Sequence record: KC801932
DNA: 64,000 bases
Direction: 5' to 3' (one strand)
Source of the DNA: Escherichia phage Lw1
Shown here: positions 946 to 34,458 of the stretch, one piece after another
How the letters are laid out: every line of letters begins with the position of its first letter
Numbering within the stretch: position 1 is the stretch's first letter
Made by a program: the position numbers and the translations under genes
Notes under the pieces: model-generated
What the model saw: only the letters and a program-made list of their open reading frames with translations
The model's database searches: none
What the model was told of the DNA's origin: nothing

Positions 946-1000
946 CCGTTTCGATATGTGTAATATAGCAAAGCCCTCACCATTAGGCAAGGGCTTTTTG
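946..1000 (-). promoter_or_regulatory. PeSL-like cassette 1 (hairpin + TGnTATATT extended -10 + ACACATATCGAAAC)
   Basis: minus-strand reading: hairpin, TGCTATATT, conserved leader, RBS, ATG; one of six near-identical copies. Confidence 0.6.
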
Positions 1001-1005
1001 TATTT

Positions 1006-1650
1006 TTAGAACTTATTATACAGGATGAAGTTTATTCCTATAGAATTCAATGCTTTACATGCAGCATCGAGGTCTTTAGGTTCTATTTCGATGCTATACT
1101 TAATGCTCTTGAGTACAGGAACTGTTTCGGATTCAAAAGAATCAAGAGTAGGAGTTTCCTGAACTGGTTCTGATGATTTCGTAATCACAATTGATTCCAG
1201 TTCGGATTGAAAGCGCGAAATCGCTTTCTTGTTTGCATACTTGAATTCTTTTGCGTATGCAAACAGCGCACGAATTTTCGAACGGGTTGTGACTACCGTA
1301 CTTTCCTTGTACTCAGCACTACGCAGAAACGATTTGTTGTTGATAAACATTTCTGCTGCAACCAGATTGTTTTTGTTGAAGTATGCTATCATTTCGCTCC
1401 GAGAATGAGTATATACAAATACATACACTTCACGATCTACTGTATACAGACGAGTATATACATGGGCTAAAAATAGATTTTCGCATACCTTATTAAAACG
1501 GTCTTCATTACTGATTGTTGAATTTCGTCTTTCTTTTGTATACGCGGAAAATGCAGAGGATTTGAAGTTCTTAGAGAGTTCTTCTATTTCCTCAATCGTT
1601 TTACCGACCATTAACCTCAACAGTTTTTCATTTTTTGATACATAAGCCAT
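1006..1650 (-). CDS. hypothetical protein (214 aa)
   Basis: ORF with no recognised motif. Confidence 0.5.
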   Translation of the reverse strand: MAYVSKNEKLLRLMVGKTIEEIEELSKNFKSSAFSAYTKERRNSTISNEDRFNKVCENLFLAHVYTRLYTVDREVYVFVYTHSRSEMIAYFNKNNLVAAEMFINNKSFLRSAEYKESTVVTTRSKIRALFAYAKEFKYANKKAISRFQSELESIVITKSSEPVQETPTLDSFESETVPVLKSIKYSIEIEPKDLDAACKALNSIGINFILYNKF

Positions 1651-1666
1651 ATTTCAATTTCTCTTT

Positions 1667-1957
1667 TTAGTGCATAAAAGATTTGATGTAGGTCACAATA
1701 TGTTCCCGACACGAGTCTACTGAGGTGTTTTCAGCAATAGCTGCATTGCAGAAGATTTCACCATCAAGCCAAAACGACAGCAGATATTGAATATCCCTTC
1801 CTTCGTTTTCCTCCTGGTGTTTCTTGATCCGTTCAAAGGCATCTTCGACGCTTTCGGTAGCGGTCAACAGTTCAGAATCACCATCAACCCCAGCCATTTC
1901 CCCAGCTTCTTCGCTGAATTCGCTTTCCAGTTCTTCCCAGTATACGATCGTTATCAT
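1667..1957 (-). CDS. hypothetical highly acidic protein (96 aa)
   Basis: about 23 Asp/Glu versus about 6 Lys/Arg, strongly negative net charge. Confidence 0.5.
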   Translation of the reverse strand: MITIVYWEELESEFSEEAGEMAGVDGDSELLTATESVEDAFERIKKHQEENEGRDIQYLLSFWLDGEIFCNAAIAENTSVDSCREHIVTYIKSFMH

Positions 1958-2090
1958 TGATTACCCCAAACAGATTTTACATTTACAGAGAGGACATTCT
2001 GCCTCTTTAACGCGTAGGCGTTTCGTTGTTGTCTTCTTTGCCGTATTGTGATCATATACATGAAGACAACGGAAGCAGATCACCAAACGT

Positions 2091-2558
2091 TTAGCCGTCA
2101 TAACCGCCACCGCATTTAACATCACCTTCAATGAACAGTTCGCGGTTGTCTCTCAAAAGATTGTATTTCTTTTCGAGTTCCGGCCCGAATGCGTCAGCGT
2201 CTTCATAATAGCTATAATTATAACAACCGCATTCATCATCCCATTCAGGATCATCACCGCATTCGTTGAAATGTACCACTTTGATATCATCAACGCCCAG
2301 TTCTTTCATTTTATTCCAGATATACCGGATGTCAACGCTATGATAACTGAATGCTTCAAGGGTGATACTATCACCATCAATTTGAGGAATACCCCATTTA
2401 GAACGTTGGTCATCGGTAATGATATCCAGTAAAGATTCTACGTTTTCATGTCCGTAAATCTTCGCGACCTCTTCCTCTTTACCAGGACGAACAAGCCCGA
2501 TCCCGATAATAAAGCTACTGCTTGAACTGTTACTTACAAAACCAGAACGGATCTTCAT
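2091..2558 (-). CDS. hypothetical protein with N-terminal leader MKIRSGFVSNSSSSSFI (paralog A, 155 aa)
   Basis: first 17 aa identical to ORF 5968-6480, remainder unrelated; ATGA start/stop overlap with upstream membrane-protein gene. Confidence 0.6.
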   Translation of the reverse strand: MKIRSGFVSNSSSSSFIIGIGLVRPGKEEEVAKIYGHENVESLLDIITDDQRSKWGIPQIDGDSITLEAFSYHSVDIRYIWNKMKELGVDDIKVVHFNECGDDPEWDDECGCYNYSYYEDADAFGPELEKKYNLLRDNRELFIEGDVKCGGGYDG

Positions 2559-2746
2559 CGTCTTACCTCGTATTTCGCGTTCTCAGCGATTTTTTCTTGA
2601 TAGATGTTATATGACATTACCAGAGGCGCAATCGCCACGATAAGCCCTATAAAGCACACAGAGAACTCACGTTTATTGAAAGCCAGGAACGCAATTGCGC
2701 TCCCGACTACAAACACACCTAATGCCAGTAAGAAGAATAGCGTCAT
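2555..2746 (-). CDS. small membrane protein (63 aa, two predicted TM helices)
   Basis: hydrophobic segments LLALGVFVVGSAIAFLAF and FIGLIVAIAPLVM. Confidence 0.5.
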   Translation of the reverse strand: MTLFFLLALGVFVVGSAIAFLAFNKREFSVCFIGLIVAIAPLVMSYNIYQEKIAENAKYEVRR

Positions 2747-3360
2747 TTCGGCAACGTGTCCATTTTGCGTGATTTTTCCAACAGGGTTTTGATTACCGTA
2801 TCCATCGCCTGTTCTGTATCACCATCATGATAGATGATCGCGGTTTGATGCAAACCTTTCACCAAACGATTAATAATGTACGCCATTTCGGTCGGTAACA
2901 GTTTACCCGTTTCGTTGAATTTTTCAAACAGTTTGAACAGTTCTTCGTTATTCCCTTTCTTACTGAAATTGAAATTGTGCATACCAGACAGAAGACCATC
3001 CAGATACAGAACTGTTTTGTTATCAGAGCGGAGGTGTCCACCGATTTTGTAGTAGTTGCTGAAAACGTATGGCGCTTCACGAACATCATTGATTTCTAAA
3101 CCAGCATCATCGATATTGCCTACGTGGGAGAAGAAATCCGCATCGTTATCGAACAGGTTGATCGCGCCTTTCTTGTACGGGAAGCCAGCCAGATTAATGA
3201 CCCCCTTTTCATACGCATTATCGTTATCAACGACAACGTATTCAGGAAGCATAGGGGCATACGGTTTGTTTTTGTCGTGGTTTTCGCGATACGCTAAAGG
3301 TTCAGCCAGATAGAGGATATCGCCTTGTTTGACTTCATCCCAAAAGATATTACGTGACAT
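2743..3360 (-). CDS. hypothetical protein (205 aa; start at MSRNIFWDE)
   Basis: ORF track extension to 3528 overlaps the upstream gene and is rejected; start set at the internal ATG just downstream of the 3375-3395 hairpin. Confidence 0.45.
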   Translation of the reverse strand: MSRNIFWDEVKQGDILYLAEPLAYRENHDKNKPYAPMLPEYVVVDNDNAYEKGVINLAGFPYKKGAINLFDNDADFFSHVGNIDDAGLEINDVREAPYVFSNYYKIGGHLRSDNKTVLYLDGLLSGMHNFNFSKKGNNEELFKLFEKFNETGKLLPTEMAYIINRLVKGLHQTAIIYHDGDTEQAMDTVIKTLLEKSRKMDTLPK

Positions 3361-3400
3361 ATTAAATTCCTCAATATGCCCCCTTTCGGGGGCTATTTCA

Positions 3401-5620: not shown

Positions 5621-5629
5621 TTAAATTTC

Positions 5630-5968
5630 TCAGTATTTGGTTGTTTTATGTGCGTTTAAAATGCTTTGGATTTTTTCGGAAATCGTTTGCTGGTCTGGTT
5701 CACATCCCAACTTACCGCCAATCACCTTATAAAAATCTTCAACAGAGCTTACGTTAAAATCCGACATATCGAAACCTAAAGAATACATATGTGGATTTGT
5801 AAATTTGTAAACACCTACATCATACTCGTTAAGGTCGAAACGTTCAAGATATTTCTTCAAAGAGAATAAATCGAACGGTAGCGGAAGATGTTGTTCAATC
5901 GATACAGGTTCCCCCAGCTTATGCGCTTTTAGCGTTGCCGCTTTCGTGTACGTCATTTCTTCTTTCAT
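5630..5968 (-). CDS. hypothetical protein (112 aa)
   Basis: ORF; ATGA overlap with upstream gene. Confidence 0.5.
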   Translation of the reverse strand: MKEEMTYTKAATLKAHKLGEPVSIEQHLPLPFDLFSLKKYLERFDLNEYDVGVYKFTNPHMYSLGFDMSDFNVSSVEDFYKVIGGKLGCEPDQQTISEKIQSILNAHKTTKY

Positions 5969-6480
5969 CAGTGGTGACTCTTTGATGTATGTTCAAGGTT
6001 ACGGAAGATGTCGCCGTGTTCCATTTGTGTTCCAACAGGTCCGCATTCATCCGAGTAAGTAAACTCGTAGATAAACACACCGTTCTGATTACCGTACTTC
6101 ATGTTGTACTCTTCATACAACCACATCTTGATCAGAGCGTCTTTCTCTTCGGTTTCTAAATCGTACCAATCCCGACCATCATATGCAAGCGCAATTTGAG
6201 GATTTGAACGATAACGGGTTTCCGCGCTATCTTCGGTTTCCCAATCATAACGCTTATCGTCATAAAACGATTCAAAGCTGTTACCCATATGACCGCCCAA
6301 ATCACGGTGTACATGGTTGATCACTTCTTCGGATGTCAGCGACGGGGTATAGTAACCGCACGTAGGATGACAGTCACCCATCATTTCGCGCAGGTTGTCG
6401 ATATTAGTCGGATCTTTCGGGAACCGGACAATGAAACTACTTGATGAGCTATTGCTCACAAAACCAGAACGGATTTTCAT
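5968..6480 (-). CDS. hypothetical protein with N-terminal leader MKIRSGFVSNSSSSSFI (paralog B, 170 aa)
   Basis: same 17-aa N-terminus as 2091-2558, encoded with synonymous differences; ATGA overlap with upstream gene. Confidence 0.6.
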   Translation of the reverse strand: MKIRSGFVSNSSSSSFIVRFPKDPTNIDNLREMMGDCHPTCGYYTPSLTSEEVINHVHRDLGGHMGNSFESFYDDKRYDWETEDSAETRYRSNPQIALAYDGRDWYDLETEEKDALIKMWLYEEYNMKYGNQNGVFIYEFTYSDECGPVGTQMEHGDIFRNLEHTSKSHH

Positions 6481-6728
6481 TGTGCATCCTCAAAATTAAT
6501 TAAATCTTTTGTAATCGTAGGTATGTCTTTTTTCGAAACGGTCGCGTTACACAACAGTTTCCCCGTGAAACCATCGTATATACTGACGCTATAATAGGCA
6601 CACGTACATTTGACTTTCTCTAGTCTTTTCATTTCGTCAATGATTACATGGATGGAAACGGATGTCGCCTTTAAATCAACTAATTCATAATAATCATGCG
6701 ATACAGTTTCAAGAGTATAGATATTCAT
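6477..6728 (-). CDS. hypothetical protein (83 aa)
   Basis: ORF in overlapping gene chain. Confidence 0.45.
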   Translation of the reverse strand: MNIYTLETVSHDYYELVDLKATSVSIHVIIDEMKRLEKVKCTCAYYSVSIYDGFTGKLLCNATVSKKDIPTITKDLINFEDAQ

Positions 6729-7375: not shown

Positions 7376-7385
7376 AATATAATCC

Positions 7386-9685: not shown

Positions 9686-9921
9686 TCCGTTTCGATACCG
9701 TATTTGTATGCGTCAATCCCCAGAGGGGTGATCAACAGACACATATCAGTATTTTCGTTTGGCGACTTAAACGCCGCAGTTGCGTAACCTTTTTCAATCA
9801 GGGCATTACGCCCTGATTTACTGGGTACGTCATCGAAATCCAATGTTAACACCTGTGATGCATATCTGTAAAGTTTATACAGCACGTCAATTTCAGCACC
9901 GGATAATTTCGGGAATGTCAT
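9676..9921 (-). CDS. hypothetical protein (81 aa)
   Basis: ORF. Confidence 0.45.
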   Translation of the reverse strand: MTFPKLSGAEIDVLYKLYRYASQVLTLDFDDVPSKSGRNALIEKGYATAAFKSPNENTDMCLLITPLGIDAYKYGIETEWH

Positions 9922-12131: not shown

Positions 12132-12397
12132 AATGATTTCCTCTCAAATTCTTCATCAGATTTCCAGTACACGTTAAAGTTACGGCAATCATGATCAGAA
12201 GTCAACGTATATTTTTCACTTGTTTTTTCATCGGTGATAACCATCGTTTCATTTTCGATAGAGTCAACACCATACACAAACACTTTATCACCGCGCGTAT
12301 TCAGGAACGCGTCACCTTCTTCAATCAACTGCCAACAGTTCACTGGTAAACCGCCCGTGCTTATCGGACGGCTAACAAGACAGTAAGGACGTTTCAT
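12128..12397 (-). CDS. hypothetical protein (89 aa)
   Basis: ORF. Confidence 0.45.
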   Translation of the reverse strand: MKRPYCLVSRPISTGGLPVNCWQLIEEGDAFLNTRGDKVFVYGVDSIENETMVITDEKTSEKYTLTSDHDCRNFNVYWKSDEEFERKSL

Positions 12398-12582
12398 TAA
12401 TCAGCAAGCCTTATGTTATTTGGATCTGGAACGAAAGTATCTTTCTGGGTAATCATGAACACCAGGAAAGCGGCGATTTCAGGATCATCAATAACGTTGA
12501 ACTTGCGTTTGCCTTTCCAGCGTACCGCGATTTTACCATCATCGAGTTTTCTGATTGCTGCAACTTCTGCTTTCTGAGTCAT
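12397..12582 (-). CDS. hypothetical protein (61 aa; start at MTQKAEV)
   Basis: GGAGG RBS before ATG at 12582; upstream extension is read-through of PeSL-like cassette 2. Confidence 0.5.
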   Translation of the reverse strand: MTQKAEVAAIRKLDDGKIAVRWKGKRKFNVIDDPEIAAFLVFMITQKDTFVPDPNNIRLAD

Positions 12583-12593
12583 AATTACCTCCT

Positions 12594-12650
12594 TCGTTTC
12601 GATGCCCCTAATATAACAAAAGCCCTCACGCGAACGCAAGGGCTTTTTTA
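12594..12650 (-). promoter_or_regulatory. PeSL-like cassette 2
   Basis: hairpin aaaagccctcacgcgaacgcaagggctttttt + TGTTATATT + conserved leader. Confidence 0.6.
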
Positions 12651-12750
12651 ATCTTTTTATCGACAGAAAGGACAACTAAACTTATCGCCGCTTCCACCAT
12701 GACGAGGACAGCAAATTTTTTCGATTGGTGTCATTGTTAAAATTTTCATT

Positions 12751-13834: not shown

Positions 13835-13933
13835 TCATAAAACAGACGCAATAATCAATACACCAAGCAAACCGCCAATAAAGCCGAAGAATAGCGAAAT
13901 GAAGATAGATAAGATGATCTGTTTTATGTTCAT
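13835..13933 (-). CDS. possible 32-aa hydrophobic peptide
   Basis: ATG..TGA ORF below ORF-track size cut-off; single predicted TM helix; low confidence. Confidence 0.25.
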   Translation of the reverse strand: MNIKQIILSIFISLFFGFIGGLLGVLIIASVL

Positions 13934-13985
13934 TATAGTATTCTCGTTCTAAGAATCAAGCCCCCAGTGCGGGGGCTTTAAAATC

Positions 13986-14912: not shown

Positions 14913-14976
14913 TTAAGTTTATGTTTCAATTCGATAGTTATTCTATCATCACCATTCAGCTTGTCAAATACTTTTT

Positions 14977-18179: not shown

Positions 18180-18581
18180 TTACTCTCCAAGTACGTAAAC
18201 AAAGCGGTCTTCGATTGAATCGTTAACACATTCGTAAATTCCCCCAGCGCGTACAGCTTTACGAATGCCGGATTTTACGATTTCCATGATCTCTTTGTTG
18301 CTTCCCCATACATTCAAATTGAAGTATAGCGCACATTCGATTGGATAGTCTTCTACGTTGCGATACACATCATCACTTTCACATACAAACAGTATGCGCT
18401 TTTCTTCTCCATATTCGAAGTAAATGCTAAACGCGTTCATACTGTTTTTATCAACAGTGATTTGAGTGATTTTAACGTTCGGTTTGCTTTTGAGTTCAGC
18501 AAGAACACTCTGAATAATAGATAACGCATTCAGTTTAATAAGTCCGCATTTTCCTACAATAACACGATGTGATGTACTCAT
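18180..18581 (-). CDS. hypothetical protein (133 aa)
   Basis: ORF; preceded by hairpin/promoter cassette 18585-18650. Confidence 0.45.
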   Translation of the reverse strand: MSTSHRVIVGKCGLIKLNALSIIQSVLAELKSKPNVKITQITVDKNSMNAFSIYFEYGEEKRILFVCESDDVYRNVEDYPIECALYFNLNVWGSNKEIMEIVKSGIRKAVRAGGIYECVNDSIEDRFVYVLGE

Positions 18582-18648
18582 AATTCAACCCTCAATAGTT
18601 GGTACACACATAATAAAAAAGCCCCTGCAAAAATGCAAGGGCTTTCGA

Positions 18649-19296
18649 TTAAATAATTTGCTTTTCTTCTAACAGTTTCGCGGTATGGTTAACCATGCGA
18701 GCATAATCACGGGCTTCTTTCTTCGTATACTTGAAGCCAGCGTTATAGCTTGCCAGCGCCTTTTTCAAGTCGCCTTTGTGGTAATCAAGCCAGTATTCCA
18801 GTTCATGAATGGCAAACTTAGAACCTCCCCGAAGGGATTCGAGCTTATTGATTACTACGCGTTTGGAATATGATTTATCCATCCGTGCGGAAGCACTGTT
18901 TACAGTGACTTGCCAACAGCCATAAGCATGATGACCTTTTTTGCCCTTTCCGGTGTTCTCACATGCGCGAGATTCGATCCAGGCAATAGCCGCTAAATGA
19001 TATCCCAAACGTTTCGATTTTTCTTTTTCAGCAGGTTTTGCAGTCGTTAGATCATAGTCGTTGCCAACTCTGAAAGCATACTCCAAAACCTTTTTCTGCT
19101 TTGGTGTAATTTCGTCCAATTCCTTGACATATGCAGGGGCATTGGCTGGTGCTTTCTTGATCACTGTTGCCTGTTGAAGCGGAAGTGTTGACTGAACAGC
19201 AGGAAGTTTTTCGATGAATTCTCCTAGCGGATCTGTCTTTGCGTGACCAGAAAAAGAGCATAAGAAAATGCTGGTCGCTAAAATAATTTTCTTCAT
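18649..19296 (-). CDS. secreted lytic transglycosylase-like (SLT domain) protein
   Basis: signal peptide; SLT-like motifs IESRACEN...GAYGCWQV and ASYNAG. Confidence 0.5.
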   Translation of the reverse strand: MKKIILATSIFLCSFSGHAKTDPLGEFIEKLPAVQSTLPLQQATVIKKAPANAPAYVKELDEITPKQKKVLEYAFRVGNDYDLTTAKPAEKEKSKRLGYHLAAIAWIESRACENTGKGKKGHHAYGCWQVTVNSASARMDKSYSKRVVINKLESLRGGSKFAIHELEYWLDYHKGDLKKALASYNAGFKYTKKEARDYARMVNHTAKLLEEKQII

Positions 19297-20298: not shown

Positions 20299-20312
20299 GT
20301 ATACCTCACGAA

Positions 20313-20335
20313 AAAAGGGGCCGAAGCCCCTTTGA
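20313..20335 (-). terminator. hairpin ggggcttcggcccc + T6 terminator
   Basis: perfect GC stem, UUCG-type loop, T-run on minus strand; same stem recurs at 35161-35185. Confidence 0.7.
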
Positions 20336-23740: not shown

Positions 23741-23811
23741 TTTGAATCCCCTTTAATCCGTTTCGTTGTCTACGAGAGAGATATTATCATACTGGGGATT
23801 CATGTCAACAC

Positions 23812-24075
23812 TTATTCGAAACGAATCGTGCTATTTTTGAAAAACATTCCAGAGCACACAGCACCAGCGATCGGTTTACCGTTTACGCCCGTAGCCGTAA
23901 ATCCGGTTGCGTATGTATCCTTTTCAGAACAGGAAAACCAGCTATATCCTGTGAACTGAATATTCGAATACCCTTGCGCTTCCAGGATACGCTGTGCTTC
24001 TCGTTCGTCGGTACAGCTTGATTGCAATAGAACGAGAACCACAACCAGTAAGACACATCCAATAACTTTAAACAT
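23812..24075 (-). CDS. putative lipoprotein (87 aa)
   Basis: hydrophobic signal ending LLQSSC (lipobox-like). Confidence 0.45.
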   Translation of the reverse strand: MFKVIGCVLLVVVLVLLQSSCTDEREAQRILEAQGYSNIQFTGYSWFSCSEKDTYATGFTATGVNGKPIAGAVCSGMFFKNSTIRFE

Positions 24076-25191: not shown

Positions 25192-26342
25192 TTTAACTCC
25201 ACTGCATAAACATCGGTTTCGGGGGCTTTGTGTACGCGCATATCTTTACCACATACCGCATAAGCCGGACAGTTGCGACAACCGTTATGATCCGTGTTGC
25301 CTGTCAGTTCTTTACGGAACTGTTTTGTTTTCGGGTGTTCCCAGATATCTTTGATAAAATCATCGGCTTCAAGGACATTCAAACCTTCACCCCAGCCACC
25401 TTCAACCCAACGTTCGGTAAACGAGCAAGGGAAGAATTCGCCTTTTTCGTTGATGTAAGAGCTAAACATCGTCGCTTCACAATCTTCCGCATACTGCTTG
25501 TATTGTTCGAAGTTCGGGTGTCCCTCCATCGCTTCAACGAAAGCTGGGGCTGAACAGCTATCGAATCCAAATCCTACACCAGAATCAAGGCAGTATTCAA
25601 CAAGTTTTTTGTATTGTTCGCGGGTGACTGTATCCCAGTTCTTACCACGTCCCTTTTGTTTCAGACCCAGGAACACGATCGCGTTGACTTGTTTCAGGCG
25701 CGGATCATTACGCACAGCATCAACAACGGTAAACGCATCATCATAGGTCTTTGAGCTAACCATGAAATGTAGGTTGATTTGCTGTTGTCCTGCTTCTGCC
25801 AGGTTTGCGACGGAATCGAAAGCAACATCGAAGCCAGCATGTTTATAAACCGATACTGCAACAGCCCCAGCAACCGCCGCTAAACGCGCTGCAACGTCTT
25901 TTGATACATCAGCAATGGTAAGGTTCGGTACAATGCCTTTAGAACGCGCATAGGCCATCATATCGAACATATCAGGGTTTGTTTGTCCCTGTGCATCAGC
26001 ACCGAGTGCGCATTGGGTTAACCAGGGCATTTTATCAATGATGGATTTGAAAGAAGCAAGATCCATATTGTAGCCGTTCGGGTTATTGGACTTGTAACAG
26101 AAACCACACAGCTTACCAGCGGGGCCATTACATTTAGTTGTGATCTCGATATCGAGGATAAAAGGAAAATGACTATAAATAGGATCGTCAGCAGGAGTTT
26201 TGCCCCAAGTCATCATATGACCTGTTTTCATATCAAAATTAAAATTAACCTCTTCGGAACGATAGATTTTCTTTCCTTTCGCTTCCAGTAGAAGTCCAAC
26301 AGGCGTTTTGATATGTTTGGCGTTTACTTTAACGTGTCTCAT
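25188..26342 (-). CDS. Fe-S protein, radical-SAM-like with C-terminal SPASM/twitch-like Cys motif
   Basis: ITTKCNGPAGKLCGFCY (Cx7Cx2C, rSAM-like TxxCN..C.FCY context) and C-terminal CRNCPAYAVC (Cx2Cx5C); start set at MRHVKV with GAGGT RBS. Confidence 0.45.
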   Translation of the reverse strand: MRHVKVNAKHIKTPVGLLLEAKGKKIYRSEEVNFNFDMKTGHMMTWGKTPADDPIYSHFPFILDIEITTKCNGPAGKLCGFCYKSNNPNGYNMDLASFKSIIDKMPWLTQCALGADAQGQTNPDMFDMMAYARSKGIVPNLTIADVSKDVAARLAAVAGAVAVSVYKHAGFDVAFDSVANLAEAGQQQINLHFMVSSKTYDDAFTVVDAVRNDPRLKQVNAIVFLGLKQKGRGKNWDTVTREQYKKLVEYCLDSGVGFGFDSCSAPAFVEAMEGHPNFEQYKQYAEDCEATMFSSYINEKGEFFPCSFTERWVEGGWGEGLNVLEADDFIKDIWEHPKTKQFRKELTGNTDHNGCRNCPAYAVCGKDMRVHKAPETDVYAVELK

Positions 26343-26354
26343 AGGAACCTCATA

Positions 26355-27083
26355 ATGTATTACGTTTACAGAATCACAAATGTTATAGAGAACAAGCACT
26401 ATTATGGATCAAGAAAACCTAAAAAGTCAATGCTTGCTTCCGACGATTTAGGGAAACACTATTTCAGTAGTTCCCGTGATAGTCATTTCATCCAAGATCA
26501 GAAGGAAAATCCAGGACACTACAAATATAAAGTAATCGTATCGGGGTTGTCAAGGGAAAAGGCGATGAAACTTGAGAAAAGGTTACACGAAATCTACAAG
26601 GTGGACACGAACCCACATTTTTATAACAAACACATACACAACAGCGTTGATTTTTCATGTACACCAGAAACAGGAAAGAAGATTTCACAAACACACCAGA
26701 AATATGCAGCAAAGAAAATTTCAGAATCACATAAAAGGCGATTCAAGGAAGGTATAGCATCACATAAAGGAGAGAACAACCCACGATACAACGATCATCG
26801 GTCTTATGAAGAGATACACGGAGAAGAAAAAGCGGAGACTATACGCAAAGCACAATCTGAATCAAGAAGAGGAAAAGGCAATTCCCGCGCGGTTACGTGG
26901 AAATTTACTTCCCCTAATGGAGAAGAATTTTTAGTTGAAGGAGAATGTAAAAAGTTTTGCAAAGACAGAAATATTTCCATGCGTAAACTGAAAACCTATC
27001 TGGGTGAAGTCATCACAACATGCGATAAACCCTACTATATCTCTAAGAATACCGTAGGATGGAAATTAGAAAAGATTATTTGA
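26355..27083 (+). CDS. GIY-YIG homing endonuclease (Seg-like)
   Basis: N-terminal MYYVYRITN...HYYGS (GIY..YIG), basic C-terminal DNA-binding region; lone plus-strand gene among minus-strand genes. Confidence 0.7.
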   Translation: MYYVYRITNVIENKHYYGSRKPKKSMLASDDLGKHYFSSSRDSHFIQDQKENPGHYKYKVIVSGLSREKAMKLEKRLHEIYKVDTNPHFYNKHIHNSVDFSCTPETGKKISQTHQKYAAKKISESHKRRFKEGIASHKGENNPRYNDHRSYEEIHGEEKAETIRKAQSESRRGKGNSRAVTWKFTSPNGEEFLVEGECKKFCKDRNISMRKLKTYLGEVITTCDKPYYISKNTVGWKLEKII

Positions 27084-27330
27084 ATCTTCTTTTACGTTCG
27101 TCAGCCAATTCTTGTTTGTACGTTTTAATGTACTTCCCGTTAAGAATTCGAAGTTGCTGGAAAACTTTGTTGCACAAAGCACGTTTCGCTTTGTATTCTG
27201 GTGTATTGCGGATTGATTCGATCGTCATACCCATTTCGTTTTTAGGGTAAGCGCTCAACTCCCTGCCGATCTCTCTGTACCAGTTGCTTAACTGGTCACG
27301 CTTTGCTTTGTACTCTTCAAAAGTTAACAT
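27076..27330 (-). CDS. hypothetical protein (84 aa)
   Basis: ORF; degenerate PeSL-like hairpin upstream at 27347-27384. Confidence 0.45.
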   Translation of the reverse strand: MLTFEEYKAKRDQLSNWYREIGRELSAYPKNEMGMTIESIRNTPEYKAKRALCNKVFQQLRILNGKYIKTYKQELADERKRRFK

Positions 27331-27481
27331 AACAATCTCCGGTTTAGTTTCTATGTGTGTAAGGTATCATTACCATACACACAAAGCAAGCTATATTTTC
27401 AAAATTAATCGGAATAATACAAAACAGAACACAGCAGAAAACACCCAACATACAACGAAGAACAACGCGATTCTTTTCAAA

Positions 27482-27634: not shown

Positions 27635-27644
27635 GGTATGCCTT

Positions 27645-27896
27645 TTATTTGATGCGTACTGCGTTGAAAGCCTGGTTACGAAGTTCGAAAGCCTGTTCAA
27701 GCTGTTCCGTGGTGAACAGAGGGCTGTCAGTGTTCGTAGTGAAACTGCAAATCGTTTTGCTGTCTGCGTTGACTTCTTCAACAACGATATCATAACCCCA
27801 GATCCCGCTAAGTTCGCACTTCACATTCCGGTACTTGATGTATACCGCAACAACATCTTCTTTCTTATAATTCCGGCTTTTGTAGATGATTTCCAT
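27645..27896 (-). CDS. hypothetical protein (83 aa)
   Basis: GGAGGA RBS; PeSL cassette 3 upstream. Confidence 0.5.
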   Translation of the reverse strand: MEIIYKSRNYKKEDVVAVYIKYRNVKCELSGIWGYDIVVEEVNADSKTICSFTTNTDSPLFTTEQLEQAFELRNQAFNAVRIK

Positions 27897-27908
27897 GATA
27901 TCCTCCTT

Positions 27909-27960
27909 CGTTTCGATGTGTGTAATATAACAGATCAGGGTTATCGAGTTTTAGCAATTC
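27909..27960 (-). promoter_or_regulatory. PeSL-like cassette 3
   Basis: cgtttcgatgtgtgtaatataac core (TGTTATATT on minus strand); weaker hairpin. Confidence 0.5.
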
Positions 27961-27967
27961 GTGCTAA

Positions 27968-28246
27968 TTATGCCATTTTCTTAGCGATTTTCCAGGCGGC
28001 TTTGAACGCTGGAACGTCTTCAATCTCAACCCAGAAACCAGATCCGAAACCATCATTGTAGCAAGGACAACCGTCGCAGTAGTTTTCCCAGGTCATCACT
28101 TCACCACCAACAGAAGCACCAGTTTCCATAGCGCGTAACGCATCTTCAACTTTTTCCAGTTTTTCGGCGTTGTCGTCGTAAATGGTGAAGTACCATTTGC
28201 CGTTGTATTCGTTACCCAGTTTGATTGCTTCGCGAACAAGTTTCAT
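27968..28246 (-). CDS. hypothetical protein (92 aa; start at MKLVRE)
   Basis: AAGGAAA RBS; ORF-track extension begins at a TTG inside the cassette. Confidence 0.5.
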   Translation of the reverse strand: MKLVREAIKLGNEYNGKWYFTIYDDNAEKLEKVEDALRAMETGASVGGEVMTWENYCDGCPCYNDGFGSGFWVEIEDVPAFKAAWKIAKKMA

Positions 28247-28269
28247 GATGATTTCCTTTTTGTCTGTTT

Positions 28270-28327
28270 CGTTTCGATGTGTGTAATATAACAAAACCCC
28301 TCACCATAGGCAAGGGGTTTCTTTAAC
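28270..28327 (-). promoter_or_regulatory. PeSL-like cassette 4
   Basis: core identical to cassette 3 plus hairpin aacccctcaccataggcaaggggtt. Confidence 0.6.
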
Positions 28328-28335
28328 AAAACGTG

Positions 28336-28584
28336 CTATTTTGTTTCTTCGAGGATTCGAAGGATTTCGGCGCGGGGGATCGGATGTTTTGCCAGCTCAC
28401 GGATCGCATGATCAAGATGCGTTTTACACATCAAGAATTCTTTCCCGCATTTGTGGCATGTCGCATACATATCACCATGTATACGGTCGATTCCATCCAT
28501 CACATAATACTTCATAAAGACGTAAGGTGTTCCACCATTCCAGCCCCGCGCAACGTGATTACACTCTCGATTGAACCATGACAT
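28336..28584 (-). CDS. hypothetical protein (82 aa, Cys/His-rich)
   Basis: ORF. Confidence 0.45.
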   Translation of the reverse strand: MSWFNRECNHVARGWNGGTPYVFMKYYVMDGIDRIHGDMYATCHKCGKEFLMCKTHLDHAIRELAKHPIPRAEILRILEETK

Positions 28585-29186: not shown

Positions 29187-29575
29187 AATTCATATTGTGA
29201 GCGAAGGATAGCGTAAAGGCTACCGATATGGATCGTGTCTACCGGACACTGGAACAGATCCCCGCGCATCATGTTAAACTCGATATCGTTACGTTCAACA
29301 TAGTTGCCGATCATTGATGTCCAGCCCATCACCAGGTTGTAACCATCTTCCGATAACCCATAAGCCAACTTAACCAAGATGCATCGCTTATCAGCCAGTT
29401 CTACGCGCATATGGGTACTGGTATGGGTGACCTTGTTCGGGAATCTGCGAAACATTTTAGTAAGGAGTTTTGCGGTTTCAATATTGAACGCCAGTTCTTG
29501 ATCCTTACTGGTCTGGTTATCATGACGACGATCCAGATATTTCTTCATTTTCGGATTCAGATTCACATGTTGCAT
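29171..29575 (-). CDS. hypothetical protein (134 aa)
   Basis: ORF. Confidence 0.45.
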   Translation of the reverse strand: MQHVNLNPKMKKYLDRRHDNQTSKDQELAFNIETAKLLTKMFRRFPNKVTHTSTHMRVELADKRCILVKLAYGLSEDGYNLVMGWTSMIGNYVERNDIEFNMMRGDLFQCPVDTIHIGSLYAILRSQYELWDMK

Positions 29576-29784
29576 AATATATCCCTCACAGGTTTATAAC
29601 GTTCTTTTCCAGTGCCGTTGCATGAACTGCATTTTGGCGATCCGTGGTTATCATATCGCCCCGAACCATTACATGCAACACATTTCCGTAATTTCCAGCC
29701 ATACACGAACCGCATGTAATAATCGGTTCGTGCTGCCTTGCGCTCATGGAAGTTCATACTTTGTTGTAAACCTGAACAACCCAC
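29563..29784 (-). CDS. small zinc-finger protein (CVACNGSG ... CSSCNGTG, DnaJ-like CxxCxGxG repeats)
   Basis: two CxxCxGxG motifs; start position uncertain. Confidence 0.4.
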   Translation of the reverse strand: MGCSGLQQSMNFHERKAARTDYYMRFVYGWKLRKCVACNGSGRYDNHGSPKCSSCNGTGKERYKPVRDILCNM

Positions 29785-29957
29785 ATTTCGATGTTCGGCG
29801 CGTAAGTAACGTTTACCATCGGCATAGTGCGGTATTTGTAAGCGGCTTTGTACGCATCGAGTTCAGTTGGAACACAGAAAGAGAAACCGTTGTCATAACG
29901 TTCTGCGTTAGAAACTTCATAACCAACTACAGCAGCAATATTTTTGTTCATGTTCAT
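29754..29957 (-). CDS. hypothetical protein (67 aa; start at MNMNKN)
   Basis: AAAGGAAAAC RBS; PeSL cassette 5 upstream. Confidence 0.5.
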   Translation of the reverse strand: MNMNKNIAAVVGYEVSNAERYDNGFSFCVPTELDAYKAAYKYRTMPMVNVTYAPNIEMWVVQVYNKV

Positions 29958-29978
29958 GATGTTTTCCTTTCTGTGTTT

Positions 29979-30034
29979 CGTTTCGATGTGTGTAATATAC
30001 AAAAAAGCCCCTGCATTGCAAGAGGCTTTTGAAT
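29979..30034 (-). promoter_or_regulatory. PeSL-like cassette 5
   Basis: core cgtttcgatgtgtgtaatatac plus hairpin agcccctgcattgcaagaggct. Confidence 0.6.
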
Positions 30035-31523: not shown

Positions 31524-31845
31524 TATGGATCACCCACAGCAATAAACAAGAATTGATAACCGCGAAAGTGGTACAAATTGCAGCAAAAACACGCGCATTA
31601 TGAACATCAGTTTTCAGTTCTGCGATCTCTTGATCCTTTTCGCTTTCGAATTCGTCGCGGGTTCCATAGTAACCAGGATCAGCAGGGGTAGCAATACGCA
31701 CAGCATCTTTTTCTACAATAGTCGCATAACCATTGTTTACATTTGTTGCACCGTACCAATCACCACGGTCATTGTTAATGATCAGGTGTTGTCCCTTTTC
31801 ATTGTGCTTTGCTTCACCAGTGACAACTACACGTTTACCGTTCAT
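31516..31845 (-). CDS. hypothetical protein with C-terminal TM helix (109 aa)
   Basis: ORF. Confidence 0.45.
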   Translation of the reverse strand: MNGKRVVVTGEAKHNEKGQHLIINNDRGDWYGATNVNNGYATIVEKDAVRIATPADPGYYGTRDEFESEKDQEIAELKTDVHNARVFAAICTTFAVINSCLLLWVIHNV

Positions 31846-31848
31846 AAT

Positions 31849-32109
31849 TTATTCCTTCACATGTTGTAACAGGAAGTCTAACAGCTTTCCTTCCTCTTGC
31901 ATAGCATAAACTTTATTAAGTTTTGCGATGTTTTGAAAATCAGTGGTGTCGGCATATTCCCAGACACCATCATCAGAAACAATAGCACCCACTGATAAAC
32001 CAGTTTCGGGGTTGCGAGTTAACGCCAGCCCCAGCGGGTGCAATATTTCTTTGTTGATTTTCCAGATCAGCCCCATATCGGACAGGGTGTTGAAATCAAC
32101 AATTTTCAT
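31849..32109 (-). CDS. hypothetical protein (86 aa; start at MKIVDF)
   Basis: shortened to avoid overlap with upstream gene. Confidence 0.4.
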   Translation of the reverse strand: MKIVDFNTLSDMGLIWKINKEILHPLGLALTRNPETGLSVGAIVSDDGVWEYADTTDFQNIAKLNKVYAMQEEGKLLDFLLQHVKE

Positions 32110-32110
32110 G

Positions 32111-32497
32111 TTATGCCTTTGGGACAACACCGAATGCCAGAAGACCCATACGATGATCGTTATCTGCCTCTTCACGGAAGAAATAGTATTGTTCATCGGA
32201 AATATCGATTACGGTGATACCCTCTTTCAGATACGGCAACAGATATAACGGGATCAGCATCAAATCAGATTCACTGCTCCATTTACGGAAACCCAGATTT
32301 TCCATTTCTTCCCGCGTCAAATCATTAGGATCTACCGGAAAGAAATTAGGCGATTTCATCAGGCGACCAGGAAGGTCACGAATATTGCTGATTGCGAATT
32401 CCGTTCCCCATGAAGTGTATTCAATAGGTTCGGCGGCACGGGTTGCGGTAGCAACGAGAATCATTTGGCACAGTTGAAAAGTATTTGGATTGCTCAT
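32111..32497 (-). CDS. hypothetical protein (128 aa)
   Basis: ORF. Confidence 0.45.
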   Translation of the reverse strand: MSNPNTFQLCQMILVATATRAAEPIEYTSWGTEFAISNIRDLPGRLMKSPNFFPVDPNDLTREEMENLGFRKWSSESDLMLIPLYLLPYLKEGITVIDISDEQYYFFREEADNDHRMGLLAFGVVPKA

Positions 32498-32907
32498 GAT
32501 ATAGATCCCACAAGTTTAGTCAGAAGGTGTCCCATAGTCTTACGCGCATGATCGCGGATTTCGCTATAAGGAACATATTTGAAACCATCCATTTCTGTTA
32601 TAGTTCGACCATTCTTAACGAAGGTTGACGCACAGAAACATTTTTCGGCTTCGGGGTAAGTATCGCCTTTGTAGACAAACAATGCAAGTTTTTTCTTGTT
32701 TGTATAGTCCAAAACACCCAGGCTGATCAGTTGGTCGGGGAACACTTCAAAGCCAGTTTCTTCGAAGCATTCACGAATAGCAGCATCAATATGGGCTTCG
32801 CCTTTTTCAACATGCCCCTTTGGGATATCCCAGTGGGGCGTTTCGGTAGCGTGACCCATTAGAATGCTGCCGTTATTCAGAAAGAGAATACCAGCAGACA
32901 ATTCCAT
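32494..32907 (-). CDS. Nudix hydrolase (NudE-like)
   Basis: Nudix box GHVEKGEAHIDAAIRECFEETG; start set at MELSAG. Confidence 0.8.
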   Translation of the reverse strand: MELSAGILFLNNGSILMGHATETPHWDIPKGHVEKGEAHIDAAIRECFEETGFEVFPDQLISLGVLDYTNKKKLALFVYKGDTYPEAEKCFCASTFVKNGRTITEMDGFKYVPYSEIRDHARKTMGHLLTKLVGSIS

Positions 32908-32908
32908 G

Positions 32909-33136
32909 TTATACCCCTTTAGAGGTAAACTGTGCGTCGTATGCTGCAAGTGCATTATCTGCACGTTTTTTCGCTTCGGTATGCCCACGACTATCATTGA
33001 TAGCACGACGATACATTTCGACCCAGAATACGCGACGTGTATCTTCGTTCGCTTCAAACAGTTTAATATCGCGGTATACGTTTTGCTCTTTGATCATTTG
33101 AGCAAGTTGCAGGTCATGTTCGGTTTGGAAAGTCAT
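32909..33136 (-). CDS. hypothetical protein (75 aa)
   Basis: ORF. Confidence 0.45.
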   Translation of the reverse strand: MTFQTEHDLQLAQMIKEQNVYRDIKLFEANEDTRRVFWVEMYRRAINDSRGHTEAKKRADNALAAYDAQFTSKGV

Positions 33137-33387
33137 AATTCACCCATTTCTTTCAGTTCAGTTTTGAGTTTTTCGAGCGTAGATTGATATTGAATGCCTT
33201 TCATGTTTGACAGACGGCTATAATACAATGTACGCGTTTCGTTAATTTCTGCCAACACTTCTTGATCTAACTTAGAAGAATCAGCACCGAATGCCATATG
33301 AAACAGCGCTTCGGCTGTAGGGGCAAACCCATGTTGAAAGGCTATACCCAGTTTTGGTTCAAATTGCATCAGGGAAACATTAGCCAT
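33133..33387 (-). CDS. hypothetical protein (84 aa; start at MANVSL)
   Basis: shortened from ORF-track call. Confidence 0.4.
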   Translation of the reverse strand: MANVSLMQFEPKLGIAFQHGFAPTAEALFHMAFGADSSKLDQEVLAEINETRTLYYSRLSNMKGIQYQSTLEKLKTELKEMGEL

Positions 33388-33673
33388 AATATTCTTCGTA
33401 GTCCTCGCAATCTGGGAGATACGTTTCGCAGAACATGCACAACGTGAAGAAAGTAGGCTGGCGAATCCCTGGATTATCAGGTAGATACATCCAGAACGTG
33501 TTAGCAAACACGATGAAGGTTTTCAGGTTTTCAACGGTTACTTCGCTGATACCATCATAACCGGATTGAGCAATAGCGCGTTCCAGGGGAACATGGTATT
33601 GCTGGCAGTAGTCGGCGTAATGTTCACTCAATACCATTGAGTTAGCCGCTTTTACGAGATCGATAATTTTCAT
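33380..33673 (-). CDS. hypothetical protein (97 aa)
   Basis: ORF. Confidence 0.45.
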   Translation of the reverse strand: MKIIDLVKAANSMVLSEHYADYCQQYHVPLERAIAQSGYDGISEVTVENLKTFIVFANTFWMYLPDNPGIRQPTFFTLCMFCETYLPDCEDYEEYYG

Positions 33674-34008
33674 GCTTTTACATATTCCACTTTAACAGGT
33701 TTGGCGATAAGGTGATCTTTGGTGTAACCTTGTCCGTCGCAAACATCACAAACGATTTTGAAATCTTCCATTTGGTCGACCCATCCATAATCAGGCAATC
33801 CAGAAGGGTACGTGTTGAAGGTTTTAACACTGTATCCTTTCCCATCACACTTAGGGCATTTATACGGGTATTTCGATTTGATCGCACTATACAATTGACC
33901 CAATGTGGTCGAATGATCAAAGTGTATAACAAATGCTTCAATGTCAGCAATACGCAGTTCGTTTGGCTTGATCACAGTAAACACATTTGAAGGTATGTTT
34001 GAGCGCAT
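33670..34008 (-). CDS. zinc-finger protein (CPKCDGKG ... CDVCDGQG)
   Basis: two CxxCxGxG motifs; start set at MRSNIP. Confidence 0.45.
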   Translation of the reverse strand: MRSNIPSNVFTVIKPNELRIADIEAFVIHFDHSTTLGQLYSAIKSKYPYKCPKCDGKGYSVKTFNTYPSGLPDYGWVDQMEDFKIVCDVCDGQGYTKDHLIAKPVKVEYVKA

Positions 34009-34250
34009 AATATATTTCTCACTTAAAGAATTTTTTGATGAAAGAGAGGAACAATCCACCACCGAACATGATCCAGTATCCCGCGCCGTCACCGTGAAAC
34101 AGGACGTAAACCGCGACACCATAACAAAAGATTTCTGCAATATTCAGTAAGTTTCTCATAATCCCCTCCCTTTTCTCTACACCAGGTATTTTACCAGAAA
34201 ATAGACTACTGTCAACAACAAAGTTTTATCAACGATACGATCACCAGTCA

Positions 34251-34391
34251 TCAGTAGTCACCCATAGGTTGAGAAGAAGCAACGCTCAATACGAGGAAAG
34301 AGCACTTGTTGATCCGGCAATATTCTTTTGCACAGTGAACACTACCTTTCATCACAAACCCGTTTGAGAACACCAACCAGTAAAGTTTCAT
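34251..34391 (-). CDS. hypothetical small protein (46 aa; start at MKLYWL)
   Basis: AGGAGGTAA RBS; PeSL cassette 6 upstream. Confidence 0.4.
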   Translation of the reverse strand: MKLYWLVFSNGFVMKGSVHCAKEYCRINKCSFLVLSVASSQPMGDY

Positions 34392-34403
34392 GATTACCTC
34401 CTT

Positions 34404-34458
34404 TGTTTCGACACCCCTAATATAACAAAAGCCCCTGCACGAATGCAAGGGCTTTTTC
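34404..34458 (-). promoter_or_regulatory. PeSL-like cassette 6
   Basis: core tgtttcgacacccctaatataac plus hairpin agcccctgcacgaatgcaagggct. Confidence 0.6.

Follow-up and report, generated by a model that had tools for sequence, protein, structure and literature searches.

The 64,000-nucleotide stretch of DNA from Escherichia phage Lw1 analysed here (record KC801932; hereafter the window) is likely to carry a family of composite terminator-promoter-leader cassettes of the promoter-early stem-loop (PeSL) kind, which would punctuate the early-gene hyperplastic region of this RB43/RB16-type T4-like phage (Pseudotevenvirus). This reading draws on the observed anatomy of the cassettes, the stability and covariation of their hairpins, their conservation above that of the flanks, their location and the recombinant joints found at them.

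All six copies listed by a previous sequence-only reading were located on the minus strand, from 946-1000 to 34404-34458. They share a core of 23-25 nt, TGnTATATT followed by a box of 14 nt, ACACACATCGAAAC or AGGGGCATCGAAAC, for which approximately zero copies are expected by chance. With up to three mismatches allowed, the 23-mer TGTTATATTACACACATCGAAAC returned 4 matches against 0.00 expected, and TATATTANNNNCATCGAAAC returned 9 against 1.02, comprising all six copies and a related site at 27347. An nhmmer profile of the core retrieved exactly the six copies from the window (E values of 6e-8 to 1e-5), the next match being 27347-27362 with an E value of 0.42. A hairpin-plus-core profile recovered five copies at E <= 8e-13 and a hairpin at 18610-18651 at 7.5e-7, copy 3 being matched through the core only. 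No copy was found by the profile search within 36-64 kb of the window. The two related sites reported at 18585-18650 and 27347-27384 proved to be as described, the former (r1) being a hairpin without the box and the latter (r2) a box without the hairpin.

All copies lie in the minus-strand early-gene hyperplastic block, between the gp25 and gp3/gp1 orthologues, and each is set exactly between a stop codon and an SD-ATG. The small gene expected after each copy was found with its SD and ATG; these first genes encode 46-92 aa, are co-oriented with the cassettes and all belong to PHROG families of unknown function. The predicted annotation artefact was also verified, as the ORFs 12397-12675 and 34251-34493 begin at TTG and yield ..GFCYIRG(I/V)ETKEVIM before the true ATG.

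Copy 1 (921..1002, minus strand like all the others) shows a hairpin at 970-997 with the -35-like TTGCCT at 985-990, TGc and TATATT at 962-967, the box ACACATATCGAAAC at 948-961 with its predicted +1 at the A at 955, and the ATG at 923 of a 71-aa gene (708-923); its fold is -19.9 kcal/mol (z -4.9). Copy 2 (12580..12652) has a hairpin at 12618-12647 (-18.9 kcal/mol, z -4.9), TTGCGT at 12634-12639, an 18-nt spacer, TGt and TATATT at 12610-12615, the box AGGGGCATCGAAAC at 12596-12609, a predicted +1 at 12603 and a GGAGG SD before the ATG at 12582 (61-aa gene, 12397-12582). Copy 6 (34389..34460) likewise has an 18-nt spacer and a GGAGG SD, with a hairpin at 34427-34456 (-20.2 kcal/mol, z -4.8), TTGCAT at 34443-34448, TGt and TATATT at 34419-34424, the box AGGGGTGTCGAAAC at 34405-34418, a predicted +1 at the G at 34412 and the ATG at 34391 of a 46-aa gene (34251-34391). 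The hairpin of copy 4 (28244..28340) lies at about 28293-28321 (-19.3 kcal/mol, z -5.1), with TTGCCT at 28308-28313, TGt and TATATT at 28285-28290, the box at 28271-28284, a predicted +1 at 28278 and the ATG at 28246 of a 92-aa Frd.1-like gene (27968-28246); a T1-type 21-nt repeat, AATAGCACGTTTTGTTAAAG, occupies 28320-28340, and its TAG serves as the stop of the preceding ORF, 28336-28584. In copy 5 (29955..30034), the hairpin at 30003-30030 (-13.9 kcal/mol, z -3.3) carries TTGCAA at 30016-30021, followed after a 16-nt spacer by TATATT at 29994-29999, the box at 29980-29993, a predicted +1 at 29987 and the ATG at 29957 of a 67-aa gene (29754-29957).

Copy 3 (27894..27968) is devoid of the hairpin and carries the T1-type repeat TTAGCACGAATTGCTAAAAC at about 27947-27966, whose TTGCTA is separated by 22 nt from TGt and TATATT (27924-27929); the box lies at 27910-27923, the predicted +1 at 27917 and the ATG of an 83-aa gene (27645-27896) at 27896. 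The related cassette r1 (18579..18650) belongs to the same hairpin family (18617-18646; -21.2 kcal/mol, z -5.7), with TTGCAT at 18633-18638, a 17-nt spacer, TATTAT at 18610-18615, a different start region with no CATCGAAAC box and the ATG at 18581 of a 133-aa gene (18180-18581). The hairpin-less r2 (27328..27389; -3.5 kcal/mol, z 0.1) shows TTGCTT at 27384-27389, a 17-nt spacer, TACCTT at 27361-27366, the box ACACACATAGAAAC at 27347-27360 and the ATG at 27330 of an 84-aa gene (27076-27330).

A GC-rich hairpin with a U-run had been attributed to every copy; this holds for five of the six, while copy 3 gave -6.0 kcal/mol (z -1.8). The RNA of the five hairpin copies and r1 folds at -13.9 to -21.2 kcal/mol with z scores of -3.3 to -5.7, followed by the U-run, and 0 of 200 shuffles folded equally well. 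Copies 2, 4, 5, 6 and r1 were flagged by the terminator scan, and the U-run of copy 1 is short. In an alignment of 35 unique hairpin cassettes from relatives, which are partly orthologous and hence not independent in the pair counts, about 97% of the cells were paired. The outer pair switches between G-C (18) and C-G (15), the one following TTGC takes the forms A-U, G-C or C-G, and the TTG side of the stem is invariant while its partners alternate between Watson-Crick and G.U. Such a pattern fits a sense-strand RNA hairpin under -35 constraint, with the hairpins as putative terminators.

The five hairpin copies carry the -35-like TTGCnn within the hairpin 5' arm, 16-18 nt from TATATT, in agreement with only 4 of the 6 consensus positions. 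TGn occurs in four of these five copies, and copy 3 has TGn and TATATT only; the extended -10 claimed for each copy is thus present in copies 1-4 and 6, whereas in copy 5 (TTGTATATT) the TG is one position off. Copies 1, 4 and 5 were also listed by a simple promoter consensus scan. The likely +1 was placed by similarity with the annotated T7 sites, in which transcription starts at an A after a C (C then ATCGAGAGGG for A1, C then ATGAAACGACAG for A3), as in the C then ATCGAAACGAAACAG of the window, 6 nt past the -10; the upstream promoter parts are unrelated, and this short similarity serves only for that placement. The box recurs downstream of canonical sigma-70 promoters in unrelated phages: in IMG/VR contexts outside the RB43/T1-type, 18 of 43 occurrences of TATATTA-N4-CATCGAAAC follow, at 16-18 nt, a TTGACA-like hexamer (at least 5/6 positions of TTGACA), versus 3 of 197 control TATATTA sites (p = 1e-12). 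On these sequence comparisons, transcription probably starts within the conserved box. Literature searches for transcript measurements in this phage and its relatives found none, and we infer both initiation at the predicted +1 and its timing, early versus later.

According to the proposed mechanism, a minus-strand transcript coming from upstream would form the GC-rich hairpin and end within the U-run (UUUUGUUAUAUU). The same DNA would act as a promoter for the host sigma-70 RNA polymerase, with TTGCnn in the hairpin 5' arm, the U-run doubling as spacer, TGn and -10 TATATT, ACACAC (or AGGGGC) as the discriminator and a start at the A of CATCGAAAC. The leaders, 21-32 nt long, A/C-rich, predicted to be unstructured and equipped with an SD and ATG, would then bring ribosomes to the small gene that follows.

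It is unlikely that the cassettes are instead activator-dependent middle promoters, at which a protein encoded or recruited by the phage would recognise one of the conserved sequences (box, hairpin DNA or ATAGCAC..TTGnTAAAA repeat), switching the promoters on after the first early genes and replacing MotA, which is absent from RB43-type phages. Nolan et al. found neither motA nor a middle-promoter consensus in RB43 (PMC1524935), and the GenBank records of KP15 and KP27 annotate nearly equal sequences, at sites orthologous to copies 2, 3, 4 and r1 and paralogous to copy 6, as "Putative middle promoter; discovered using MEME" together with ARNold terminators, the r1 orthologue of KP15 bearing both (Maciejewska et al. 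2016, PMC5219037). The middle label would imply dependence on a phage factor, but it is based on MEME motif finding only, its timing is unsupported by data, and the annotation is given without architecture, PeSL or recombination link. The weak -35 and a conservation exceeding sigma-70 needs also favour an activator; however, extended -10 promoters need no good -35. Moreover, unrelated phages, host-RNAP promoters of the T7 type and other sites in RB43-type genomes show the same -10 and start box behind a canonical TTGACA -35, which argues for use by the unmodified host polymerase.

The 21-nt repeat bears on the same question. aaATAGCACnnnTTGnTAAAA is an intergenic direct repeat of the T1-like phages TLS, T1 and Rtp, described only in Drexlerviridae, where its function is listed as an open question (PMC11447400). 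Copies 3 and 4 agree with its defining features (a match to aaATAGCACnnnTTGnTAAAA, intergenic, along transcription, with a start codon some 76 nt further on), the repeat lying 70 nt and 92 nt from the ATG, respectively. Given its rigid spacing of 22 or 33 nt from the -10, the repeat is centred near -41 or -52, where an activator or the alpha-CTD typically sits, but it is missing in the other four of the six window copies. In T1, NBD2 and many IMG/VR contigs of about 50 kb, the repeat is combined, as in copy 3, with a start of the CATCGAAAC type behind an extended -10; T1-like phages lack a homologue of the copy-3 gene, which confines the sharing to the regulatory DNA. The T4 MotA box (TGCTT; TGCTTtA) has its centre at -30 and precedes the -10 by 11-13 nt. 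The cassettes resemble MotA promoters in that the -35 is weak or absent, the -10 is good or extended and a conserved TGCT-containing motif lies upstream, but the distance from the end of TTGnTA to the -10 is 22 or 33 nt; on this spacing and on the findings of Nolan et al. for RB43, a MotA-type promoter was rejected. A sigma-54 promoter at TAGCACGAATTGCTA, sought as GG and GC elements with TGGCAC-N5-TTGC spacing, was also discarded, as each copy shows AG in place of GG and a G-to-G spacing of 9, not 11.

We consider it improbable that the box is conserved mainly as RNA rather than as promoter DNA, the mRNA 5' end (AUCGAAAC...) controlling stability, translation or processing through a phage or host factor. 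The box covers -6 to +8, with conservation running on into the leader (GAAACAGA..AAAGGAA or GAAGGAGG), within it only GAAAC (+4 to +8) stays unchanged from the ACAC to the GGGG subtype, and the A/C-rich leaders, with no structure predicted, would suit this role. On the other hand, no Rfam family matches, no conserved secondary structure was found and the discriminator half lies upstream of the predicted +1, hence outside the transcript; a role of this kind is in any case compatible with the terminator-promoter cassette.

The cassette occurs in 189 phage records, each having it at 3-9 sites; it is 100% identical across 64 nt in RB43, and in Miller a further copy follows the DNA ligase gene, before small ORFs. 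Cassette identity is 0.97-0.98 versus 0.74-0.88 for the flanks. Neutral duplication in the recent past, or a small mobile element devoid of regulatory role, would account for the near identity of copies within the genome but is very improbable, given that orthologues in Pseudotevenvirus and Slopekvirus exceed flank identity, the stems show compensatory changes, placement between stop codon and SD-ATG is exact, genes are co-oriented, and the window copies show no terminal inverted repeats or target duplications.

PeSLs are defined by architecture, i.e., a sigma-70-type promoter with a stem-loop possibly overlapping the -35, followed by the SD and ATG of a small ORFan, in hyperplastic regions and adjoining indels between close relatives (PMC2839356; PMC4122927). 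They have been described in RB49/phi1 (Arbiol et al. 2010, PMC2839356) and in T4/PST and KVP40/nt-1 (Comeau et al. 2014, PMC4122927), the 2010 paper mentioning for the RB43 group only "PeSL-like sequences" near g43 of RB43, data not shown. Beyond architecture, promoter and terminator activity and mini-circles arising when neighbouring copies recombine also count as PeSL criteria. Each sequence-level feature was recovered here: the sigma-70-type promoter (TTGCnn, 16-18 nt and TATATT in the five hairpin copies), the stable stem-loop in or next to it (five of six copies and r1, not copy 3 or r2), overlapping the -35 as in one PeSL subclass, the SD and start codon of a small ORFan in a hyperplastic location, and the association with indels and replacements among close relatives, though most breakpoints lie elsewhere. 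The PeSL assignment is thus supported by architecture and comparison, with the caveat that the phage is of the RB43/RB16 type and not of the RB49/phi1 type cited by the sequence-only reading. Differently from PeSLs, the -35 is TTGCnn instead of a near-perfect TTGACA, compensated by TGn, and the most conserved part is the 14-nt discriminator/start box, absent from the PeSL description. No RB49-type phage occurs among the listed sequence matches, indicating that the cassettes are analogues, not sequence homologues, of RB49 PeSLs, a known kind of element not previously described in detail in the RB43/RB16 group.

In comparisons with related phages, homology of the flanks changes partner at the cassettes. 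Around copy 5, the window equals Miller/CfP1 on the upstream side as far as through the hairpin and RB16/RB43/EkoM5VN from the SD onwards, the crossover falling inside the invariant 35 nt (recombinant joint within about 29965-29999). The flanks of copies 1, 2 and 4 are likewise decoupled, and RB43 lacks exactly the copy-3 cassette and its gene. A homology breakpoint was found at 8 of 8 cassette junctions versus 37 of 68 other junctions (p = 0.011; 0.07 when copy 6, whose breakpoint is 133 nt from the cassette, is excluded). Since 37 of the 45 breakpoint-bearing junctions have no cassette, the cassettes explain only a minority of the gene-replacement breakpoints and are not the main route of gene turnover in the region. 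Their high conservation could result from selection on promoter function alone. As copies hardly differ over 35-85 nt, both from one another and across related phages, the cassettes may also represent homology patches and, as proposed for PeSLs, recombine with one another; by the mechanism we infer, the phage's own recombination system would thereby swap, insert or delete promoter-plus-gene modules.

The window belongs to a T4-like Pseudotevenvirus genome of the RB43/RB16 group and is matched most closely by the records of the Citrobacter phages Xman, CfP1, Miller and IME-CF2 (about 91% identity); RB16 shows 94% identity to the window over part of the query. From 440 to about 36,100, between the gp25 and gp3/gp1 orthologues, lies a block of about 80 small minus-strand genes, mostly annotated as hypothetical in Miller, RB16, CfP1 and KP15: a hyperplastic region as Comeau and Krisch define it. 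A 931-nt segment at 26160-27090 is missing from all six relatives compared and carries, within this minus-strand early block, a plus-strand ORF of 256 aa (26313-27083) assigned to PHROG 314 (homing endonuclease, E 5e-26). Near-identical terminator-like hairpins (AAAAAGCCCCTTCCTTTCGGTTGGGGCTTTTTT, 94% identical) occur 37 kb apart at 439-474 and 37717-37752, near the two ends of the block, and a second pair (AAAAAGGGGCCGAAGCCCCT, 100% identical) was located 15 kb apart at 20312-20331 and 35163-35182. A 63-nt direct repeat (2499-2561 and 6421-6483, 78% identity) at the 5' ends of the minus-strand ORFs 2091-2558 and 5968-6480 suggests that these are paralogous small genes.

The block also contains all the copies of a dispersed putative terminator-promoter cassette, co-oriented with the genes, and the first gene after each copy, 46-92 aa long, falls into a PHROG family of unknown function. 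The sequence-only reading had reported six copies and likened them to the promoter-early stem-loop (PeSL) elements of RB49/phi1-type phages; the finding proved real and its interpretation correct in outline. The six sites, 946-1000, 12594-12650, 27909-27960, 28270-28327, 29979-30034 and 34404-34458 (copies 1-6), all show on the minus strand TATATT followed by a conserved 14-nt box, a Shine-Dalgarno (SD) sequence and ATG. In the window the 23-mer TGTTATATTACACACATCGAAAC with up to 3 mismatches gave 4 matches against 0.00 expected, and the looser TATATTANNNNCATCGAAAC gave 9 against 1.02 expected, taking in all six copies and a related site at 27347. An nhmmer core profile, derived from cassette copies of related phages, returned exactly six cores in 64 kb (E 6e-8 to 1e-5), the next match having an E value of 0.42, and a profile including the hairpin recovered five full copies (E <= 8e-13), a hairpin at 18610-18651 and copy 3 by its core only. 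Further candidates at 9689, 11052, 38967 and 54103 were discarded as chance matches, located within genes or devoid of a -10.

A hairpin with U-run, originally attributed to every copy, was found in five; copy 3 has neither, and its fold energy was -6.0 kcal/mol (z -1.8) versus -13.9 to -21.2 kcal/mol (z -3.3 to -5.7) in the others. Similarly, the TGn extended -10 occurs in copies 1, 2, 3, 4 and 6, but in copy 5 (TTGTATATT) the TG is one position off the canonical one. The artefactual N-terminus ..GFCYIRG(I/V)ETKEVIM, produced by ORFs reading through the repeat, was confirmed.

In the 5' to 3' direction of the minus strand, the parts of a full copy are an A-run, a hairpin of 12-13 bp (GCCCTTGCN-loop-NGCAGGGGC or GCCCTTGCN-loop-NGTGAGGGC, with CCCC...GGGG ends in copy 4), the U-run TTTTGT, TATATT, ACACAC or AGGGG(C/T), (A/G)TCGAAAC, a leader rich in A and C whose SD is AAAGGAA or GGAGG and, finally, the ATG. 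The hairpin's 5' arm contains a -35-like TTGCnn, separated from TATATT by 16-18 nt, so that together with the TGn a single DNA stretch encodes terminator stem, U-tract, -35, extended -10 and -10. Hairpin pairs were examined in 35 distinct cassettes drawn from relatives and IMG/VR contigs and were tabulated fold by fold, since stem and loop lengths differ and the MAFFT alignment was consequently out of structural register. The outer pair was G-C in 18 and C-G in 15, the pair after TTGC was A-U, G-C or C-G, and the TTG side never varied while its partners switched between Watson-Crick and G.U, although these counts are indicative rather than independent, as the cassettes are partly orthologous, and the use of each sequence's own minimum-energy fold is biased towards finding pairs. 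The pattern is, indicatively, the one expected of a sense-strand RNA hairpin whose 5' arm would also be held as a -35. No Rfam family matched anywhere in the window when gathering thresholds were applied.

All the sequence-level features by which PeSLs are recognised occur in the cassettes (PMC2839356, PMC4122927), which on these grounds probably form a further PeSL-type family. The proposed match to RB49/phi1-type phages holds for the architecture only; no RB49-type phage is among the copy-4 matches listed, so in sequence the cassettes are unrelated to the RB49 PeSLs. On RB43, the 2010 paper (PMC2839356) goes no further than naming 'PeSL-like sequences' near g43, without showing them. The cassettes are present in relatives: copy 4 (64 nt) has matches in 189 phage records, at 3-9 places per record, in Pseudotevenvirus and Slopekvirus phages of Klebsiella, Enterobacter, Cronobacter, Citrobacter and Escherichia, and is 100% identical in RB43. 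Identity within the cassette reaches 0.97-0.98 where the flanks show 0.74-0.88. A further copy was observed in Miller at 57003-57066 (locus L097), outside the region covered by the window, after the DNA ligase gene and ahead of a run of small plus-strand ORFs, co-oriented with transcription.

In the KP15 RefSeq record the orthologous sites are marked 'putative middle promoter; discovered using MEME' and overlap ARNold terminators, the accompanying paper giving the method alone for this label. A MotA-type middle promoter, with TTGCTA taken as the MotA box, was rejected because the box would lie at the wrong distance from the -10 and RB43 has no reported MotA; Nolan et al. found neither MotA nor a middle-promoter consensus in this phage and described its early promoters as TTGACA-type with UP elements. 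A sigma-54 reading of TAGCACGAATTGCTA fails on AG instead of GG and on the spacing. Promoters of the TTGACA type also occur in the minus-strand block, e.g., at 14940-14967, 23781-23808 and 34188-34215, and the cassettes are therefore a distinct repeated subset of the promoters there. Other composite or strong minus-strand promoters were noted in the same block at 13932-13985, 14940-14967 and 23781-23835: one has the hairpin AAAGCCCCCGCACTGGGGGC fused to TTGATT-16-TATAAT, another shows TTGACA-16-TAGAAT followed by ATCGAATTGAAAC, and the third has TAGCACGATTCG.. ahead of TTGACA-16-TAATAT. Literature searches for Slopekvirus or RB43 transcriptomes or transcript mapping, and for the motif strings, returned nothing relevant.

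For recombination, positions 1-37 kb of the window were set against their syntenic counterparts in Miller, CfP1, RB43, RB16, EkoM5VN and KP15. Copy 5 is the clearest case of recombination. On its upstream side the window equals Miller and CfP1 over the upstream gene, the hairpin and TTTTTTG, and on its downstream side it equals RB16, and nearly equals RB43 and EkoM5VN, from AAAACATCATG into the downstream gene, Miller and CfP1 having a different gene behind this cassette. The crossover falls within 35 nt common to all the genomes compared, TATATTACACACATCGAAACGAAACACAGAAAGG, and as judged from the alignments it is a clean recombinant joint inside this invariant promoter core. For copies 1, 2 and 4 the upstream and downstream flanks have their best matches in separate genomes or at separate cassettes. 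An additional gene sits between two cassettes at the copy-4 locus of EkoM5VN, and RB43 lacks exactly the copy-3 cassette and its gene (27635-27967).

With counts corrected by hand for copies 2 and 6, which are hidden by read-through ORFs, 8/8 cassette junctions had, in one comparison or more, a homology breakpoint no further than 40 nt away, versus 37/68 other junctions (p = 0.011), or 7/22 of those with an intergenic spacer of at least 25 nt (p = 0.001 versus the cassette junctions); the copy-6 breakpoint is 133 nt from its cassette, and omission of this copy gives p = 0.07. Most junctions with a breakpoint (37 of 45) have no cassette. The cassettes appear to be preferred exchange points and not the main cause of plasticity.

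The box following TATATT is absent from the published PeSL description. By position it is predicted to comprise the discriminator (-6 to -1) and the first eight bases of the transcript. In the T7 promoters used by host polymerase, the start is annotated at the A of ATCGAGAGGG preceded by C (A1) and of ATGAAACGACAG preceded by C (A3), which places the predicted +1 at the A of CATCGAAAC, corresponding to window positions 955, 12603, 27917, 28278 and 29987, and in copy 6 at the G of position 34412. Scanning IMG/VR for TATATTA-N4-CATCGAAAC returned many contigs neither RB43-like nor T1-like, one group of which (L013) is lambdoid; a BLAST search with another of them, L008, turned up no named relative. 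A hexamer matching TTGACA in at least 5 of 6 positions was found 16-18 nt ahead of this motif in 18 of 43 distinct contexts and in only 3 of 197 control TATATTA sites from the same loci (p = 1e-12). The IMG/VR loci having the motif behind a near-consensus TTGACA are L008, L013, L020, L023, L032, L033, L036, L040, L050, L059, L064, L073, L083 and L091, and RB43-type genomes also have this combination of -10, box and leader behind a canonical TTGACC with no hairpin (loci L038, L039, L056 and L081). As the box occurs elsewhere after ordinary -35s, it would act as a start-region module of ordinary sigma-70 promoters, a use that argues against the need for an RB43-specific activator, and TATATTA-N4-CATCGAAAC looks like a widely used module of this kind. 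At the copy-1 locus ACAC-type and GGGG-type boxes interchange between genomes, leaving GAAAC (+4 to +8) as the only invariant part, which may be conserved in either a DNA role or an RNA role.

A further element, ATAGCAC-N3-TTGnTAAAA, precedes the promoter on the minus strand in copy 3 (27947-27966) and, imperfectly, in copy 4 (28320-28340). This motif is the 21-nt direct repeat aaATAGCACnnnTTGnTAAAA reported for TLS, T1 and Rtp, whose function was listed as an open question by the authors of the TLS paper (PMC11447400). In T1 and NBD2 it stands ahead of almost all early intergenic promoters, and it is also present in many IMG/VR contigs of about 50 kb, the loci with the repeat being L094 (NBD2), L096 (T1) and L009-L087. 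A BLAST search with copy 3 returned 887 records, including T1 and hundreds of other phages of about 50 kb from Escherichia, Shigella, Klebsiella, Citrobacter and Salmonella, with 75-81% identity over 60-70 nt. The RB43-type Straboviridae and the T1-type Drexlerviridae are unrelated families of virulent enterobacterial phages. Gene sharing between them at this site was ruled out by tblastn with the copy-3 gene, which detected homologues only in RB43-type phages, plus two distant matches, and none in T1-like phages; the regulatory DNA alone is common.

Among 86 distinct occurrences, the start of a TAnnnT hexamer follows TTGnTA at exactly 22 nt in 44 and at exactly 33 nt in 12, with almost nothing at other offsets. 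The 33-nt class corresponds to the hairpin-bearing RB43-type copies, including copy 4, and members of the 22-nt class lack a -35 at the usual distance. TTGnTA was dismissed as an ordinary -35, the spacer being 22 nt with no -10-like hexamer at 17 nt. The rigid spacing, with its jump of one helical turn, suggests an upstream promoter element read from one helix face. In T1-like promoters (e.g., positions 834-900 of locus L096 and loci L055 and L087) an inverted repeat often brackets the -10, as in GGGGTAAT..ATTACCCC or GGGCATT..AATGCCC, resembling the PeSL subclasses whose stem-loop overlaps the -10.

We tentatively propose, as a possibility short of an even chance, that the cassettes are part of a promoter architecture common to RB43-type Straboviridae and T1-type Drexlerviridae, with the ATAGCACnnnTTGnTAAAA repeat as its upstream promoter element. 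The repeat would stand in, in a helix-face-dependent manner, for the -35 at extended -10 promoters, always 22 nt or one turn more (33 nt) from the -10, and the common CATCGAAAC start would follow. If so, the architecture would probably have spread by horizontal exchange of regulatory DNA alone. The module common with T1-like phages is the more novel lead, partly contained in the original finding.

The comparison at the copy-5 joint directly supports the idea of regulatory cassettes as portable recombination sites of gene modules, here in a third T4-like lineage, within the limit that most gene turnover in the minus-strand block takes place without them. Many RB43-type and Slopekvirus phages are therapy candidates. 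Gene callers read through the cassettes and generate false N-termini, and once the cassettes are recognised the transcription units of both phage groups can be drawn more accurately. If true, the shared architecture would settle the function that the TLS paper left open, account for T1-like genomes seeming almost free of sigma-70 promoters and represent a portable promoter module moving between phage families. The -10/start module and, in two copies, the T1-type repeat recur in unrelated phage families, which makes the cassettes relevant to several phage groups.
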